Notes: a model not told the origin generated them from the sequence alone. A DNA stretch of 57,984 bases, filler included, from Ionaspis alba (GCA_964255285.1; 6 parts of 6 records of this genome joined end to end with filler, not necessarily neighbours in it); one strand, 5' to 3'. Counted from the whole stretch's first letter, positions 408-48,438 are shown. Numbers and translations are program-made.

Positions 408-2307
408 CTAAATCTCAACTAGCACTTTTAGCTCGTTGTCCATCCATTCATTTGTACTTGCCGCATCCAAGGCTGCAGTCCATTGTCCATCCTCAACAAT
501 TTGGACGAGTCCCTGCGGCAATAAAACAGTGAATTGCCCCGGACGTACTTCGACCCCAGCACCCTTGACAGCAGGCTGCATACCTATACTAGCCAATAGT
601 ATAGTCAAGTCACTACCCTCGTTGATAGGAACATCTAGACGAGGTAGAATTCGTTTTCCTGCTTTTAGGAGATTGATATGAAGCCTTACGGAGTTGACCG
701 ATTTCACTTCTGTCGATAGATCTGTGTTTACGGGAAAACTTGACGGCAACAATGGCGATCTGTATACACCTGATGCAATCAACTTCTGGCCGGTGTCTGA
801 ATCCCTTGTGCCCTGATGTTCATGGGAAGGCGATCGGCTAAGACCTTCTCGTATGATGCGGAATAAGTTGTGGAGGAGAGGACGAAATCGATATGGCTGT
901 CAGCAGTTGCCTATGTATTACTGATGATTTCAGGGCTTACTGATGGCGCCTTTCGCTGATGGGTAAGCTCAGAGGGCTCTGTAGATCTGCACTGTCCAAA
1001 TAGCCTGTGCCCAAGATTCGATCAATAATTTCGTCTTCACATGATGTACTGCATTTGCTACCCTTGAGCTGTGCAGCACCATGAAACATCCTACAATGAT
1101 GATCGATGGTCGCTACCAAGCCGTTGTAAGCAGTTTGCGTTAGACCAGACTGTACACCGAGCTTGTCGAGCTGCATAATTAATTCTTTATCTTTATACGT
1201 CGTCGTCCACACCACATAGTCCTCCAGATCTGCGCCACAAACTTTGAGGAAGAACTCATGGTGATCTGGAGCTGGACTGTGAGGGTGTGGCTCAGAGCGT
1301 GGGTCTTGTTCCAGAATCTGCTGGCTTCGGTTGTTGAGCTTCCTCCGCTTGGTAACGCTTTCACCGCAGGAATCTTCTACCTTTCTAGTCTCAACGGCGT
1401 ATCGTCTCTGACGCTCATTCGTTACCATTCGCCTCAACAAGGGCATAACGGCACTGATGATATTGTTTTTGTGTGTAGGCCAAAACATAGTCCTCACAAT
1501 TCCTTCATCGCCTTGAACGTGCGATCCAAAGAAGAGATTCCCGTTACCCTCAGCCTCCAAGAATTCTTTCACACAGGTCCAGAGTCGTAGCTTAACGAGC
1601 TCCGAGTCACCTTTGCCACGCTGGCCAACCGTCTCTTTCCGATCTGGGTAGGCGTCATTGAGCATATAAGCTTTGGCCTTGGCTTGCAACTGCAAGAAGC
1701 CTTCTGGAGACAATTCCAGAGATGTAAAAAGTTTTGACATTGGAGGCCGGGTATACTTCTTGCTGGTGGTAGAAGTACGCCGGAAAAGTGCAGAGCCTGA
1801 CTGTAGAGTGCCCAAGGGTGCATCAAAGCCAGCCTCATCGCTCATCGCCAATGGATCTCTTGCCTGTAGATCTGTGGTTCCATCTGTCGACAAGTGCTTC
1901 CGTTTTCTAGCATTGCGAGCGTGTTGCATCAATGAATTGGAGTCACTTGAAAGCGTGTTGGTATGGCTCGGATTTTGCTCCCTCGAGTCTTGTTGCTCAT
2001 CTATACCCTGTGATTGTCTTGTAGTCCGCCTTAGTCCATGTGTTGTCTTGGTGGGTTCCGCATTATCTATATCATCTTGACTCGCTGCAGCTGTAGCGGC
2101 TTGGATAAGTCCCGCGAGGTGTCCGATCGAATCAGTTTGATGAACATGTAGAGCATCATCCGCTAAGGCATACATTCGATCGTCTGGCGCAGTTGATTGA
2201 CCTAGATCTGGGTAAATGCTTGTGGCCTCAGCTTGCTCATCCTGATTTTCATGATCATCCGTTGCCTGAGTGGACAAGGTATAGTATGGACCACTGCTCC
2301 GTGCCAT
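408..2307 (-). CDS. Conserved fungal hypothetical protein (spliced, >=2 exons), possibly nuclear
   Basis: 456-aa ORF 937-2307 ends at a GTAAG donor (~940) and the 408-782 ORF supplies a plausible C-terminus. Central block YTRPPMSKLFTSLELSPEGFLQLQAKAKAYML...LLRRMVTNERQRRYA, with basic NLS-like stretches (RKRKH, KRRK). Acceptor position uncertain. Confidence 0.7.
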
Positions 2308-9613: not shown

Positions 9614-9713
9614 NNNNNNNNNNNNNNNNNNNNNNNNNNNNNNNNNNNNNNNNNNNNTTAATTAATTAANNNNNNNNNNNNNNNNNNNNNNNNNNNNNNN
9701 NNNNNNNNNNNNN
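9614..9713. other. Artificial scaffold-joining linker (N44-TTAATTAATTAA-N44)
   Basis: Six-frame-stop spacer; the same linker recurs at 19322-19421, 29007-29106, 38692-38791 and 48339-48438. Confidence 0.97.
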
Positions 9714-12166: not shown

Positions 12167-12280
12167 TGACAAGACAGGGATTCGAACCCTGGAGGTTTGC
12201 ACCAGAGCAATATGTAGCCATCTTTTGATGGTCAAGATGAAAACTTGAGTGCTCCGCCTTAACCACTCGGCCATCTTGCC
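12167..12280 (-). tRNA. tRNA-Leu(CAA) with 33-nt canonical intron (12211-12243)
   Basis: GGCAAGA/TCTTGTC acceptor stem, TGGCCGAGTGG A box, GAGCA-CTCAAG^T-TGCTC anticodon arm, GGT-GCAA-ACC variable arm, CAGGG-TTCGAAT-CCCTG T arm; downstream T runs. Confidence 0.95.
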
Positions 12281-16300: not shown

Positions 16301-16439
16301 GCTTGAATACGACGAACCTACGGATCTCCCCTTGGAATTGAGCTTCAACGAGTTCTTCTTTGGCACCTCTACCATTGCTATCGGCCACAAAGCGATAGAG
16401 CTCGGGAGATCTGTATGGGAGAATTGCTTGAAGTGGTAG
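13348..16439 (+). CDS. Large acidic, probably disordered protein of unknown function, 4 exons
   Basis: Exons 13348-13389, 13561-13623 and ~13678-13899 splice in phase 0 (GTACGT, GTAAGC and GTATTT donors) into the 803-aa ORF ending at 16439. No recognisable domain. Confidence 0.7.
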
Positions 16440-16920
16440 AGGCGTCAGAGGTCCAGGAGGATTGGAGGTATGTGGAGCTAATTCGGGAATCGAAGATCCA
16501 TTGCAGAGATTATCTACAGATGGGACGGGTGCTAGCACCCTACACTGAATAGGTTGAGAGCAACTTGCGAAGGACGTTGCCTTCTTGAATAATAAGAATT
16601 TGATAGATACGTAGCGGAGTGCTCGCCACTATTTGTTGAGGATCATCTTTTAGTTGTATCGAGCTGGCGGCTTGGAGTTGGAAGATATGTTCCGAATGCG
16701 CTTCATACATCACCGGAGGTCGATCACGGCTCGCGTGATATGAGAGAGGGAAACCCCTGAAGTCATATATAACATTGAGACGACCATAAATGTCTTTTTT
16801 TCTTCTCTTGGTATTGTCTATTGCAAGCTGCCCTTGAATCGTAACAATCGCGAAGTGTTTTATTTGAGAATCGGGTGAAAGTCGGGCCTTTGAAAACACA
16901 AAGACGCGACAGTTGAAAGG

Positions 16921-16926
16921 AAAAAA
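16921..16926 (-). terminator. Pol III oligo-T terminator of tRNA-Gln
   Basis: TTTTTT on the minus strand starting 14 nt after the discriminator base. Confidence 0.7.
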
Positions 16927-16939
16927 GGGCAAAATTAAG

Positions 16940-17093
16940 AGGTCTCGCCGAGAGTCGAACTCAGGTTACTGGAAGATTTCGATATGGATATTGGATACCC
17001 CTTCAAAATCCAGTGTGATAACCACTCTAGAAAACGAGTTTTAGCTTGAGAATTGAGGTAAATCAAGTGGATGCGCTCACACACTACGAAACC
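16940..17093 (-). tRNA. tRNA-Gln(TTG) interrupted by a 54-nt GT-AG spliceosomal-type intron (17027-17080) and a 28-nt canonical tRNA intron (16975-17002)
   Basis: Spliced: GGTTTCG TA GTG T^AGTGGTTAT CAC A CTGGA TTTTGA^T TCCAG TAAC CTGAG TTCGACT CTCGG CGAGACC T. All four stems pair; T6 run follows at 16921-16926. Confidence 0.85.
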
Positions 17094-17442
17094 CACGTCT
17101 TCAATTTTGCGAGGTTCGTATTTCAAATAACAGAGGGAAAAAATGGAGGAAAATGTACAATTTGCTTTGAAAGATTTTGGCCGCCGAATCAGTGTTCACG
17201 AAATATAGTTCGACGAAAACATTATTCACTGCTTCCCTACGAAGCAAATCTAGTTCTCAGCCATATCCTATGGAGGTCATATGGAGGCTACCCCATTAAC
17301 TCCTTACTGTCTTGGCAAGCAGATATTGGTTGATATTGGTTCTACAATTTTGTACGATGTGCCAACAGGCATAGATCGACTCTAAATGACACCTACTGTT
17401 GTGGCAACCTCCCTTCCATCATCTGCGACAACTTCCAAGTCC

Positions 17443-18530
17443 TCAGGAACGGCTGATCGGAAACTTGTTGTTGATTCCTGCGTTACCAACCATTGCAGAA
17501 ATATTCATAAGCCTGGTCTTGTGAGTGCACTCTTGTGGCATCAGCTCACACTTAATAGTGCCATCTTCTTCTTTGACCGCGCTGTATGTTCTCCGAAACA
17601 GATATTCGCAGATGCTCCGTTCAGCGTGCGTACCATAAACAGTTTGCAAGATAGTACGCGCAGCTTTCAGATCTTTCTGATAAAAAATATAGCGCCATTC
17701 GTCCGGGAAACAAGGATGCTTAGGGTCTATATCCACGCCACGGTTCTCCACGTCGTCATAGTCGTCTCGTTCAGGTTTCACACTGGTCATAGTGCTTGAC
17801 CCACAGTGTGCCCACTATAGTTGTCTCCCAGGGCGGTAGGATCGTAGAAAACCAGGAGTCTGAAATGCAGATAATACCGCATAGTGTTGTCTCCCCACTG
17901 CTTCATAACTTGCCTGGGGAGACATATCAGGATAGGCCGATGGAGGCCCGGTGCTCATCCGTCTCTTGATGGAACATCCGATAGTAAGACATGAATAACA
18001 GACACATATGGATCTTCCTTAGACCGGTTTGGTCTACAACTATTCATTTTTGCACTGGAAGATGTTGCAACTGCTCTAAAGCTCTGGCTACCTCTGGTGA
18101 TTGGGGGACGAGCCCATTTGTGTCAGTCGTGAAAGGCTCGTCGTACACTATCGACGTCCATAGCGGCCAGACATTTGACCATGTCTCTCGAGGCAACTTA
18201 TTGGAACAGAGAACGTTTTCCATGTTCACAACGACAATAGCTTTTCAGTCTTTGATCTTCAGATCTGACAGCTCTGCAAAAGCGGCTATAGTGACTAGAA
18301 GCTGTACAGATCATCAGTAGATTTAGATGTCAAGAATATATAATCCAGATATGCTAGCAATCACAGGTGCAACAGGCAGGAGATGGTTGGCTATAGTCGC
18401 TCAGAGCCCAATGGCCCCTTCTCCACGAGCCAAACATTGAAGGTCGCCAGCGTGAACGCTGGATCTAAAACATGTAACCCCTTGGAGACTAGTTTCCGAA
18501 CATTGAACAGAGAATAGAGATCCATTGAGG
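17443..18530 (-). pseudogene. Possible decayed gene of unknown family
   Basis: Coding-like minus-strand segments broken by in-frame stops (...DLKIKD*KAIVVVNMENVL...PVQK*IVVDQ...), with a splice acceptor near 18295. Confidence 0.3.
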
Positions 18531-20489
18531 GCGTCACATATAGATGTATCGAACAGAAAGTACCTAAACGAGTATTGGAATGGAAGATTGTATCTTTACA
18601 GCGAAGCAGTATAACTGTCACGAACATGTGATGCATTGAAGATCTAGTTTGCGTGCTGGAGGTCGCTGCGTAAGAGTTACACGAGAGCCAAATATACAGG
18701 AAGAAGGAGCCCAGCCTTATTGGTAGAGTGGCCAGATACAGAGAGACTTCCGACAACACGTTAAAAGTGACAGACCATAGACGAACAGACCAAATGGAAA
18801 CTCAAGCTCTTTCACAGGGTGCTGTCTGTCACTGCAGAAGAAGGCACAGTGCTCACGGCTCTCGCTAAGCAGCCCAGATACATGAGATACGGCAATGCAG
18901 TAGATATGAATTTGGCTAAAGGTATGAGGATGCTCCCTCCAGAGATTCGTGGAGCTGTTGAAGGTCAAAAAATGTCGAAATCCTGGGCAAGCGAGGGTCC
19001 GAGTCCGAGATCAGGAAAATTTGCACGTAATATTTGTGTTTTCTTATCTGCTCCGACATCTGAATTTTGAAAAATCTCTGCTCAGCAAATCTGACAAAAT
19101 TCGAGAAGCTCCGTACCTGATAACACCAATCACATGCAGTCCAAGACCCATCGAGTACACCCCAAGCCTGGACTCCGACACTCTTCTCGCGACTTCTCCC
19201 TACACCTACTGAAATTCCCCAAATTCACCATCGTCGAATCCCAGTTCCGCCATTGATTTGCCCTCCAAGCTTACCTGACCACCAAAGCCATCTCTACTCC
19301 TCCTCTTCTCCTTCATATCTTNNNNNNNNNNNNNNNNNNNNNNNNNNNNNNNNNNNNNNNNNNNNTTAATTAATTAANNNNNNNNNNNNNNNNNNNNNNN
19401 NNNNNNNNNNNNNNNNNNNNNAGCATCGGTCACGTCACCACTGTAGCACATAGTGCACAATTGAGCAAGAATCGACGACAGTTCTGAGAAGCCCGCGAAC
19501 GGAAAGTTCTGTTCACTATCCCTGCGTCCACGTCATTTCATAAGAATAGAAGTCAGAAATCATGTTGTAGAAGTGCAAAAGCTACGGATTACTTTGGATC
19601 TTTCCTCGTTGACGCGGTGTAGCTCTACTCGCTCGTAAGTGTCTAGTAGGTGAAGCATATCTGCAGATACCTGACATATCACCATGAGTTTACGACATCC
19701 TCCGATTAGGGCTGCCTGAATACTCCCGGCAGTGTATACAGTCCTCGATAGCCATATATCTTTGTTTCCCATCCTCTGATTCCATTTTATTTCGTACTTT
19801 CCAAATCGACGTTCCCAGGCCGACATCCTCTTGCTGCTTCAGAACCATTCCGTCGTCTTACCATGACGGCATCTCCAAACCCCCAACCTTATCTCAGCTG
19901 TAGTTCCTTCAGAAATAGCATGCACCAGCATACTCATGACCAGTGTTCTTGACCTTCTACAGCTCTTCGTCCTCCTGGGCTTCCTCCCCCACCAAAGCCA
20001 GTGGCACCAGCCGCGGCTCCTCTCAATATGCCATAGTGGCGCACTCGTCGAAGAGAACTACCCTTTCCTAGTGGCCCTTAGCACCATGGTGTCCCGCACC
20101 GTCCACGACGGCCCCGCCCGGTGCAGTCCCATATCCATACTGCAAGCACATCGTCTGCTGCCCTAGTCGGTGGGACTCTATTAATATCTGTCTTTTCACC
20201 GATGTGGATGTTTCAGAGACGGGCGTTTCGCGCTTTCGGTGCCATGGAGGCATTGTAACGGCTCGTCAAATAAAAATGTCATGGTTGGTGGGGGCTGGCC
20301 TGTTCCGGTGAGTTATGGTCCGAAGGAGGGCGGAGTTCAGACGATCAATTCTGCGATGTGCGGTTGTCAACAATGTCTGTCTGAGGCATGGTGGGGACTC
20401 GAGAGAGCCACGGGAGAATTACAAATCGGGATCCCGGAATCGGAATTGAGGTGCGTCGTCAAGATATCTTGAAGAGTTATCCTCATGAA

Positions 20490-25983: not shown

Positions 25984-27360
25984 ATGGCGCCTCAGCCAGT
26001 GAGTACGAAGCGGATTGACGAGGCACAGAAATTGGCGAAAGATGAGCCCGCAAAAGCTGAAGCAATATACAAAGATATCCTCTCCAAGGGCCCAGGGTCA
26101 GGCGAAACAGCTCTTCGAGAATATGAGGTAGCGTTGATGGGCCTTGGGGAGATATATCGGGATGGCAAAAGACCAAACGAGCTTGCAGAGCTCGTACGAA
26201 CAAGTCGATCAACTCTCTCGTCATTCGCAAAGGCAAAGACGGCTAAGCTAGGTGAGCTCTCAAACCAGTCCCGTTTATACATGTCTCACGTTATCGCAGT
26301 GCGCCAGCTCCTCGATCTCTTCACCACTATCCCCAATACAGTTCCCATACAAATATCCGTCACCAAATCATGTATAGAATGGGCTATCTCAGAACGCCGC
26401 TCCTTCCTACGGCAAAACCTCGAAACCCGTCTCGTCACTCTCCACATGGCTCAGCAATCCTACTACGACGCCCTTACCCTCATCAATAGTCTTCTCAAGG
26501 AGCTCAAACGTCTTGATGACAAGCTCGTCCTCGTCGAAGTGCAGCTTCTCGAATCCCGCGTCTACCATGCTCTGGGGAATCAGCCGAAAGCGAAAGCTGC
26601 TCTGACCTCGGCGCGGACGTCCGCCGCCTCAGTATACACACCTCCGCTGCTGCAAGCCGGTCTGGATATGCAATCTGGCATGTTGCATGCGGAAGATCGT
26701 GACTTCAACACCGCTTTCTCCTACTTTATCGAAGCTCTCGAAGGTTACCATTCTCAAGAATCTACCACCCTCGCCACATCCGCCCTCCAATACATGCTCC
26801 TCTGCAAGATCATGCTTAACCTCTCCGATGATGTGAACCAGCTCATGACCTCGAAACAGGCCCAAAAATACTCTGGGAAGAATCTAGAAGCCATGAAAGC
26901 TGTTGCCCGCGCATACTCCAATCGATCTCTCGAGGACTACGAAAAGTCTCTGTCAGATTACCGGTACGAGCTTGGTTCTGATACGTTCATCCGAAACCAT
27001 CTGCGACGTCTTTATGACAATCTGCTAGAGCAGAATCTAATCAAAGTATGCTTCTCTCCCAAGTAGATGGGAATATTTTGTGCTAAATAGGTATATCAGG
27101 TCATCGAACCCTTCTCGCGCGTAGAAATTGACCACATCGCCAAAATGATCCGTCTGGACACAGTACAGGTGGAGCGCAAGCTCAGCCAGATGATCCTCGA
27201 CAAGGTCATCATCGGGGTATTAGATCAAGGTGCTGGGTGCTTGATTGTCTACGATGAAGCGGAACGGGATCAAGGATACGACGCGGCATTAGAGACTATC
27301 GAGAAGCTAGGCTCAGTAGTTGACGTGCTGTATAGTAATCAGGCGTCGATGTTGGAGTAA
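25984..27360 (+). CDS. RPN6: 26S proteasome lid subunit Rpn6, 3 exons
   Basis: [51 protein letters not shown]...[12 protein letters not shown] (PCI domain). Introns ~26252-26299 and 27046-27099. Confidence 0.96.
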
Positions 27361-28430: not shown

Positions 28431-29568
28431 GAAATCAACATGCGCGCAGGCTAGTGCGATTCTATTTCAGCAAGATTTACAATTCCGCTAGATATCCCAG
28501 TGACCTGTTTGAGCAGAGCGATGGCTGACGCAAAGCTGAGATGGCTGTGGCTCCCACGGTCTCGGTGACTGTCAGGGGTGTTAAAGGATCGGTCAGTGGG
28601 AGACGAGCACTGTTGGCACTTTACAAGATAATGCATTCCCAACCACAAACTCATAATTGGCAGATCTGTTGGCCGAGGTAGTGGCTTTAACAAATTTGCG
28701 GTAATGGAAGGTCTTCTCAGTGCTCACTCTGGAAATCCTAATAGAGGACACGGGACCGCCGCAAGGAGTACAGGATAGGCACCAATCCTAAGCAGAGCAG
28801 CTTAACGAACATGGTCATCAAAACCCTATTACAGCGTGGCGAGAAGTTTCCCTAATATTGATCGGAGAGAAGTGCCAAACAGAGGATCACGGGAATCATG
28901 CTCCTATGGCATAGGTTATCTCGTAAGATACCACGTCAGTGAGGCTGGCAAGTCAGAATATCTATTTCCATTCAGAGCTATGTACACACCATATGTACAA
29001 ACCACTNNNNNNNNNNNNNNNNNNNNNNNNNNNNNNNNNNNNNNNNNNNNTTAATTAATTAANNNNNNNNNNNNNNNNNNNNNNNNNNNNNNNNNNNNNN
29101 NNNNNNTGGAGCACGAACAGGGAAAAGGAGGAGCTAGTGCACGTGCGGGCCGCTTCAGCCCGTAGAAGCGTGGCTTTGGAAAGTTTAAGTTTGGTGGCTA
29201 GGCCGAAGAACGGAGCTGCTATTTATTATGTTTCTTACGAAAATCGAGTATCTATTGTGTCAAATCTTATGGGCGCATGCATTGCAGGTTCGCAGATTTG
29301 CGTTTATCGATTGCAATATATAGGCCAGTCTTTCTGCAATAACACGGACAATGGCTGAGCACTGCCTTGTAACCACTGTGCATTCTATTCAGAAAGGGCC
29401 GCCGATGAAAGAACAGCGCGGAGAAATGAAGAAAGAGTCTATGCCCGAATTCCCGTACTCCAGTCTGGTCCATAGACGCAAAGTACAGACACAACCTATT
29501 CCGGTAAAACCTGGAGCTATGCAGAAGTGAATGCTCACATCATGCCGCTAATCGGATTCGGAGCTCCC

Positions 29569-37861: not shown

Positions 37862-38791
37862 TGACGCGGAGCACGAACGAGAACAATAGGGAGGGTACGT
37901 ACTCATCCAATTCTATGTTCCTATCCGACAGTCCAGGTACCTCGTTGCTGAGCTAGATATTAGTCTACCAGGGTACGAGTGACTTGGACGATACGCACGG
38001 ATGCTGAGGCGCTGGCTCGATATCACAATTGGCGGAGGTAGCCATATATGTCACTTGTAGAATGGCACATACACAGAGACAGCAGGATGATGCCAGTACA
38101 GGAAGATGTGTGAGGAAAGGTGATAAACAAATGTAGCACAGAGGGCAGGAAAGGAAATTGATATAGATAAAGAACTGGGCCGTTTAGGCATGAAATATTG
38201 GGCTGTAAGGCTCGCAGCCTTGCCAGCCAAAGTGCGCCGGAGGAGCCATACCTTGTCCTGTAAGCCAATGGCATTGAGTACAAGAACGATAATGGCTGCA
38301 GACAGGGTCGCAAGGCAGCAGGTCATTCAAGTCGGGCAAGACAGGGCAAACAAGGCAATATGAGCCGGCCACTATGTTGGAGGATCGAGCCTTGCGAGCC
38401 TCAGGGCTTGACAAGGACTCAACTCGAGCTCCCGAAAGTATAACAGAGCAACAGTGTGGTAGCTGAGGAGAATAGATTATTTTGGAGCTCAAAGCCCGTA
38501 GCATCAACAAAGTCAATGCTCGTCCCTTGTCAACTGGGGGACAGCATTAACCAGCACGAGAAGGATCACTCAGCATCCCAATTTGTCATGACGTCATTTG
38601 GAGCATCAGTAGGGCAAATATCATATCGTAGAAGATCCTCGGGACCATGAGAGCGACAATCTTCAAAGATGACTTGATAATAGTCAAGACANNNNNNNNN
38701 NNNNNNNNNNNNNNNNNNNNNNNNNNNNNNNNNNNTTAATTAATTAANNNNNNNNNNNNNNNNNNNNNNNNNNNNNNNNNNNNNNNNNNNN

Positions 38792-48338: not shown

Positions 48339-48438
48339 NNNNNNNNNNNNNNNNNNNNNNNNNNNNNNNNNNNNNNNNNNNNTTAATTAATTAANNNNNN
48401 NNNNNNNNNNNNNNNNNNNNNNNNNNNNNNNNNNNNNN

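Follow-up and report, generated by a model that had tools for sequence, protein, structure and literature searches.

Introduction

By the textbook account, the introns of nuclear tRNA genes lie between nucleotides 37 and 38, and their removal is the task of a protein endonuclease and a ligase, with no part for the spliceosome. In chloroplasts, the D stem of trnG-UCC is interrupted by a group II intron, an organellar element that is hundreds of nucleotides long, folds by itself and leaves through lariat chemistry. For the mRNA-type introns of U6 genes, an origin by reverse splicing into a component of the spliceosome has been proposed.

mRNA-type introns have been described in fungal U6 snRNA genes (Tani & Ohshima 1989, 1991; Canzler et al. 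2016; cited in PMC5855946), and spliceosomal introns in the rDNA of lichen-forming ascomycetes (Bhattacharya et al. 2000, cited in PMC8527467). According to PMC8527467, yeast spliced a lichen spliceosomal rDNA intron out of rRNA made by RNA polymerase I (Pol I); together with the U6 cases, this provides a precedent for spliceosomes acting on transcripts that are not made by Pol II. Ectopic and multiple nuclear tRNA introns have been reported from Cyanidioschyzon merolae (PMC3728597). A term search of a 2023 tRNA review (PMC10275265) returned the spliceosome once, named as a contrast. Our literature search yielded no description of a tRNA gene with a spliceosomal intron; most subscription journals lie outside its coverage, so absence is unproven. 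mRNA-type introns in non-coding RNA genes are thus already known, and it is the tRNA host that would be new.

Here we describe a tRNA-Gln(UUG) gene interrupted in its D arm, located in a stretch of 57,984 nucleotides that was analyzed as a whole (the window). As in U6, the insert resembles a short GT-AG intron in a critical conserved part of a small, presumably Pol III-transcribed non-coding RNA gene of fungi. Unlike in U6, the host is a tRNA rather than a spliceosomal snRNA, the same precursor also carries a classical tRNA intron, and the reverse-splicing origin is not obviously applicable to tRNA-Gln. With the lichen rDNA introns, it shares an ectopic spliceosomal type and a structural RNA gene that is apparently not read by Pol II, and the lineage of the window is lichen-forming too; the host here, however, is a tRNA gene rather than Pol I rRNA, and the insert also occurs in Pleosporales. 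The introns described for C. merolae, where the genes are nuclear, and for archaea likewise break tRNA genes outside 37/38, with more than one intron per gene. Whereas those introns are defined by a bulge-helix-bulge (BHB) and cut by the tRNA endonuclease, the present one shows no consistent BHB, and its boundaries and internal motifs are of the spliceosomal kind. The canonical 37/38 class is represented here by the second intron (16975-17002); the D-arm insert differs from it in its signals and in its position, 24 nt further upstream. The likeness to trnG-UCC lies in the interruption of the D arm and, if the spliceosome is the agent, in removal through a lariat, but the inserts described here are nuclear, 50-58 nt long and unstructured.

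Results

We confirmed that positions 16941-17093 of the window, on the minus strand, constitute a tRNA-Gln(UUG) gene split by a 54-nt GT..AG insert and by a 28-nt intron at 37/38. The features of the locus, in the order of transcription, are:

17119-17130, minus strand: AT-rich element TTATTTGAAATA, 26-37 nt upstream of nucleotide 1; a possible TATA-like element
17081-17093, minus strand: exon 1, nucleotides 1-13 (GGTTTCGTAGTGT); 5' strand of the acceptor stem, U8, A9 and 5' strand of the D stem
17027-17080, minus strand: 54-nt spliceosomal-type intron in the D arm, between nucleotides 13 and 14, identified by the exact restoration test and by splice signals
17075-17080, minus strand: 5' site of the insert, GTGAGC
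17040-17045, minus strand: branch-like GCTAAA of the insert, which also contains a T4 run
17027-17030, minus strand: 3' end of the insert, CTAG
17003-17026, minus strand: exon 2, nucleotides 14-37; D loop, 3' strand of the D stem, 5' strand of the anticodon stem and anticodon TTG
16975-17002, minus strand: canonical 28-nt tRNA intron at 37/38 (ARAGORN i(38,28)), pairing with the anticodon region in the fold
16941-16974, minus strand: exon 3, nucleotide 38 to the 3' end; 3' strand of the anticodon stem, variable loop, T arm with the B box GTTCGACTC, and 3' strand of the acceptor stem
16921-16940, minus strand: discriminator T (16940) and 3' trailer, with T4 at 16931-16934 and T6 at 16921-16926; putative terminators, as both runs resemble those of Pol III

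An earlier reading of the window, made from the sequence only, had proposed that nucleotides 1-13 are cut off from nucleotide 14 onward by 54 nt, that removal of the insert yields a 7-bp acceptor stem, and that the 28-nt intron pairs with the anticodon region. The layout that we read on the minus strand agrees with this: GGTTTCG of exon 1 pairs with CGAGACC (16941-16947) at 7 of 7 positions, and the pairing of the 28-nt intron was seen in the MFE fold. The 3' end of the insert reads TTTTCTAG, and exon 2 begins with AGTGGTTATCAC at 17026.

ARAGORN called no tRNA at this locus in the native window, also when introns were allowed. When 17027-17080 was deleted in a script, it called tRNA-Gln(ttg) with a 28-nt intron at position 38, so that removal of the insert yields the cloverleaf with anticodon of a functional nuclear tRNA gene. 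The Rfam tRNA model gave no match to the native locus at gathering level, reporting only 12167-12280 (45.7 bits) in the window. At a permissive threshold it returned 16.7 bits at 16940-17036 (threshold 29, E 1.6), a match that uses the 3' end of the insert as a false 5' strand. The last bases of the insert (CGTTTTCTAG, 17027-17036) look like exon 1 (GGTTTCGTAG).

A structural scan of both strands of the 58 kb, for a T arm with a TTCRA loop and G53-C61, a fully paired 7-bp acceptor stem and then T8, found two places, namely this gene and the known tRNA at 12167-12280, which appears twice in the output with two alternative 5' strands. This second tRNA of the window (minus strand, Rfam 45.7 bits) has an intron beside its anticodon and reads by eye as Leu(CAA); the label given by ARAGORN, Met(cat) with an intron of 33 nt, is probably wrong.

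We scanned metagenome contigs for TAGTGT followed by any 40-70 nt and then by exon 2 with some degeneracy, making no demand on signals within the insert. Eight loci (L001-L008) were recovered. Four of them (L002, L003, L005 and L007) are normal tRNA-Gln genes without an insert, matched through a TAGTGT that lies upstream by chance. In the other four (L001, L004, L006 and L008), which are tRNA-Gln(UUG) genes, the D arm holds an insert of 50 or 58 nt and site 37/38 an intron of 15-17 nt. Since L004 and L006 are 99.7% identical, the four insert-bearing loci represent three distinct sequences; with the window included, the insert is carried by only two lineages and four distinct sequences. The insert-bearing pattern had 0 matches in genome_contigs and 0 in viral_contigs. 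The sequence-only reading had suggested that related genomes would hold tRNA halves joined by inserts with conserved splice signals and divergent interiors. Inserts with GT, branch and YAG were indeed present in the tRNA-Gln(UUG) genes of other fungi, recovered by a pattern that did not require these signals. Divergence of the interior held for L001 against the others (identity 0.66) but not for L004 against L008 (0.91).

L001, L004/L006 and L008 are syntenic, with both flanking genes in common at 72-76% nucleotide identity, and are by this evidence orthologous loci of three fairly distant species. In a protein search of L004, the best named relatives of the ALG2-like gene beside the tRNA were from Pleosporales (~72-80% identity), the closest being Setomelanomma, Ophiobolus, Alternaria, Parastagonospora, Pyrenophora and others. 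Most Pleosporales are not lichen-forming, and the order includes well-studied species. The named proteins closest to the Cullin-3 exon of the window come from Xylographa, Schaereria, Lambiella and Lasallia (72-75% identity), and by these matches the lineage of the window is that of the lichen-forming Lecanoromycetes. Between the window and the L loci, blastn matched only the tRNA itself, and tblastx matched nothing. The contig end at L008:2548-2680 is a long inverted repeat in which several miRNA hairpin models score below their thresholds; it is likely an assembly fold-back.

The standard finders fared no better at these loci. On native sequence, ARAGORN made two false calls, Glu(ctc) (63-nt intron) and Arg(tct) (61-nt intron), and none at L008, and the Rfam tRNA model returned nothing on L001, L004 and L008 at E<=1. 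As a judge of insert boundaries, ARAGORN proved too lenient, calling Gln for 234 of 1215 trial deletions in L001 and behaving alike on the other genes. Because of this leniency, boundaries were instead set by exact identity to an uninterrupted D arm: a deletion was accepted only where it recovered every base of the 18-nt D-arm string found in uninterrupted tRNA-Gln genes (reference L003). For the window this left a single solution, a 54-nt deletion after nucleotide 13 with GT..AG ends. In L004, L006 and L008, four boundaries are equivalent because GTA is repeated at both ends of the insert, and only the one after nucleotide 11 is GT..AG (GTACGT or GTATGT ... AATCAG); L001 has five equivalent boundaries, two of which are GT..AG. 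Boundaries set without the use of splice signals thus allow GT..AG ends in the window, L001, L004, L006 and L008.

The inserts of L001, L004, L006 and L008 lie between direct repeats of 3-4 nt (GTA or GTAG), which could be a trace of intron gain; the window has no such repeat. We considered an origin by tandem duplication, as the start of the L004 insert resembles the start of exon 2, and rejected it as unproven, the likeness being absent in the window. No second copy of an insert, as a repeated mobile element would leave, was found in the window or the loci.

The insert of the window begins with GTGAG, has GCTAAA 13 nt before its TAG 3' end, and contains a T-rich tract and a YAG acceptor. An extended 5' site (GTRNGY, with G at +5) is present throughout, as GTGAGC in the window and as GTACGT, GTATGT and GTAGGT in the L loci. 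A CTRAY-like branch motif lies 10-30 nt upstream of the YAG in the window and the L loci alike, with CTAAC in L004 and L008 and CTTAAC in L001 each ~11 nt from the CAG end. The GCTAAA of the window insert is a degenerate branch motif, which counts against recognition by the spliceosome. GT..AG flanks occur in 0.38% of all 54-mers of the window, and the combination of GTRNG, a YTRAH motif 8-30 nt from the end and YAG in 7 of 113,412 (~6e-5), some of these being real introns.

We compared the insert with mRNA introns of the same window. The RPN6 intron at 27046-27099 is 54 nt long and has GCTAAA 12 nt from its acceptor. Five further introns, in Cullin (69 nt), DEAD-box (52 nt), SDR (55 nt), JmjC (51 nt) and APP1 (54 nt) genes, were inferred as frame-preserving GT..AG joins of adjacent ORFs sharing Pfam domains; the joins were chosen by their intron-like look, which makes the selection partly circular. 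The 5' sites of the six are GTATGT, GTAAGA, GTGCGT, GTGATT, GTAAGT and GTATGC. At 54 nt against 51-69 nt, the tRNA insert fits these mRNA introns in length, and it also fits them in the type of its 5' site and in its branch variant. Two claims of the sequence-only reading, that the insert is as long as the mRNA introns of the window and that the GCTAAA variant recurs in an RPN6 intron, were borne out in this way, the RPN6 motif having a like spacing. A third, that GTGAGC is shared with a C2H2 gene of the window, found no support, as a strict zinc-finger pattern located no such gene. In the L loci, the inserts (50-58 nt) are close in length to the intron of the neighboring caleosin-like gene (54-56 nt), whose 5' site in L004 is GTAGGT. 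A simple join of the caleosin-like intron in L001 (reverse orientation) gives a stop codon in frame (GLE*), and the joins of L004 and L008 stay open; the acceptor or boundary in L001 may differ.

We next consider selection on the exons and the insert. The exons of L001, L004 and L008 are identical at 70 of 70 positions, whereas 100-nt flanking blocks of the same loci share 0.49-0.63 identity, the level of shuffled sequence. The exons have therefore not decayed at the rate of their flanks (1.00 vs. 0.49-0.63), as those of a tRNA pseudogene would. Between the window and the L exons, 10 positions differ, all in ways that keep the structure: three two-sided compensatory pairs (6:67, 7:66 and 51:63), two GU/GC switches and two unpaired bases. 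In two of the compensatory pairs, a base of exon 1 faces a base of the 3' end, on the other side of the insert. By these comparisons the exons are under purifying selection, which makes a pseudogene unlikely.

These data bear on the possibility that the interrupted genes make no tRNA, being dead copies or having a different use (a TFIIIC/B-box site, for instance), with tRNA-Gln(UUG) supplied from elsewhere in the genome. Such a state would agree with the failure of standard finders on the interrupted genes and with the split A box (see below). We nevertheless regard it as unlikely. It would not explain exons that stay identical in three species while flanks and a neighboring mRNA intron are randomized, nor the preservation of exon 1, since only pairing with the 3' end would give exon 1 a reason to persist. 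The acceptor and T-stem changes between the lineages are compensatory, the T-run terminators are kept, and gene conversion from intact paralogues would erase the insert as well. The conserved exons and compensatory changes instead point to tRNA genes under selection, from which the insert has to be taken out, the spliceosome being the most likely agent.

The insert itself is also constrained in part of the family. The D-arm inserts of L004 (gene at 1950-2095, minus strand) and L008 (1994-2139, plus strand) are identical at 53 of 58 positions (0.91), compared with 29 of 56 (0.52) for the mRNA intron of the neighboring caleosin-like gene, which shows that a constraint beyond splice signals acts on the L004/L008 insert and counts against the reading as a plain spliceosomal intron. 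The insert of the window is 0.63-0.66 identical to the L inserts, where shuffles have means of ~0.53 and maxima of 0.62-0.66. Its start (GTGAGCGCATCC) resembles a stretch of the L001 insert from the fifth base (GTGACGCATTC). Common descent of the window and Pleosporales inserts, with sliding, is therefore possible. The site is 13/14 in the window and 11/12 in Pleosporales, or 15/16 in L001, and with these differing sites a single origin is not established.

If the insert is not removed by the spliceosome, the tRNA splicing endonuclease, or another endonuclease with a ligase, might remove it at an ectopic site, the GT..AG ends being coincidental. Ectopic nuclear tRNA introns are known, as PMC3728597 reports for C. 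merolae, and the higher identity of the L004/L008 interior (0.91) than of the mRNA intron (0.52) could reflect a structural need. We therefore looked at folding and at endonuclease-type signals. The D-arm inserts have folding energies of -1.4 to -4.2 kcal/mol, weaker than shuffle means; that of the window, at -4.2 kcal/mol against a shuffle mean of -6.0, is unstructured. The MFE folds computed for the precursors retain both the acceptor stem and the helix between anticodon and intron; the insert is mostly open, with no helix joining both insert junctions. In a crude test for a BHB, four pairs were sought between the opening bases of the insert and those of exon 2. The window reached at most 3 of 4 central pairs; some boundaries of the L loci permit 4 of 4, in wobble-rich form only, which is a point in favor of an endonuclease. 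Located in the D arm and, by this crude test, lacking a 4-bp central helix in the window, the insert does not resemble a BHB/TSEN intron, and the result argues weakly against an endonuclease route. The junctions are unjoined in the folds, the inserts are less structured than shuffles, and GT..AG ends, G at +5, branch distance and an mRNA-like length are kept in all four distinct sequences. Removal by an endonuclease is thus, in our estimate, improbable, and we retain the spliceosome as the likely agent.

The transcription signals are mixed. The B box and the T runs are present, and the A box is split by the insert in the DNA, which counts against a working gene. T runs follow all of the genes (7 in L004, 7 in L008, 5 in L001, T4 and T6 in the window), the longest T run inside the inserts is 2-4, and AT-rich blocks lie upstream of L001, L004 and L008 too. 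The T4 run in the window insert could stop some Pol III molecules, and exon 1, of only 11-13 nt behind a short uncapped leader, is an unusual setting for recognition of a 5' splice site; both count against the proposed route. The A-box consensus is T R G Y N N A N N N G G. The exon 1/insert junctions of L004 (TAGTGTACGTGG) and L008 (TAGTGTATGTGG) fit this consensus; the junction of L001 fits it in part and that of the window (TAGTGTGTGAGC, 17070-17086) poorly. One idea is that the start of the intron in L004 and L008 would rebuild the split A box, leaving the promoter at its normal place.

A match resembling snR90, an H/ACA snoRNA of S. pombe, lies at 17140-17248 on the minus strand, 47 nt upstream of the tRNA and on the same strand. 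Despite a 13-nt exact run (GAAUAAUGUUUUC), it scores 18.7 bits against a threshold of 80 (E 4), and we rejected it as probably noise.

The spliceosome might also act on a longer transcript of RNA polymerase II that includes the gene, with RNase P and RNase Z releasing the tRNA. Spliceosomal splicing is normally coupled to Pol II, and in the window an unannotated minus-strand ORF (17443-17814) ends ~350 nt upstream. This ORF, however, has no Pfam match. In L004 the gene is flanked by an ALG2-like gene in convergent and a caleosin-like gene in divergent orientation, with no visible same-strand host within 2 kb on each side, and runs of T5-T7 directly follow the L genes. We consider a Pol II host transcript to be a poor candidate on these grounds and favor transcription of the gene by Pol III.

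The insert could, finally, be an error of assembly or a private mutation of one sample. The window contains 13 N runs, and of the two samples (X1 and X2, from one study) that provided Logan contigs over the locus, X1 may be the source of the window, in which case only X2 adds support. The X1 contig (1686 nt, depth 132) spans the insert, and the X2 contig (239 nt, 16987-17225) bridges both insert junctions, each with 0 differences. Similar inserts are present in four independent metagenome records, and an artifact or private mutation is accordingly very hard to credit. No joint that skips the insert was found in the X1 and X2 contigs, a result that does not bear on insert-less paralogues.

At 16349-16856, X1 has two contig versions with depths of ~85 and 50-62, with 28 mismatched positions and one indel between them in a stretch of 311 nt (16546-16856); from 16827 to 17900, tRNA included, there is a single version with a summed depth of 132. 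The sample may therefore contain two haplotypes or strains. Among the N runs of the window, three are of 100 N, and five blocks of 44 N, 12 bases and 44 N recur with ~9.7 kb spacing (9614-9713, 19322-19421, 29007-29106, 38692-38791 and 48339-48438). These blocks look like masking or scaffolding rather than biology.

Discussion

Taken together, we consider it probable that the locus is a functioning nuclear gene for tRNA-Gln(UUG), that its two introns differ in kind, and that the one in the D arm is removed by the spliceosome. The gene would be transcribed most likely by RNA polymerase III, as suggested by its B box, T-run terminators and AT-rich upstream element. The nuclear spliceosome would then remove the 54-nt U2-type (GT-AG) intron at 13/14, rejoining the D stem and the D loop, after which the tRNA splicing endonuclease and ligase would remove the 28-nt intron at 37/38. 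The sequences themselves show how the gene is built, its splice signals, the conservation of these signals in other fungi and selection on the exons; which polymerase acts, that splicing occurs and which of the two steps comes first are our interpretation. That one precursor needs both the spliceosome and TSEN had been proposed in the sequence-only reading; the comparative evidence supports this proposal, and from it we infer the splicing itself.

A broader and rather doubtful scenario is that a single D-arm intron arose before the split of Dothideomycetes and Lecanoromycetes and has been kept since then, sliding by 2-4 nt, that this tRNA is the first known to need both systems, and that the sequence of the intron is itself selected. 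Possible reasons for such selection are an A-box-like element at the exon 1 junction or a tie between the supply of this tRNA and the capacity of the spliceosome.

If confirmed, the D-arm intron would add a third route of tRNA maturation and would extend the known substrates of spliceosomes, among Pol III transcripts, from U6 to others that are very short and uncapped. One tRNA would rely on two unrelated splicing systems. The finding would also expose a blind spot of tRNA finders, and Gln-UUG genes may be missing or mis-called in many fungal annotations.
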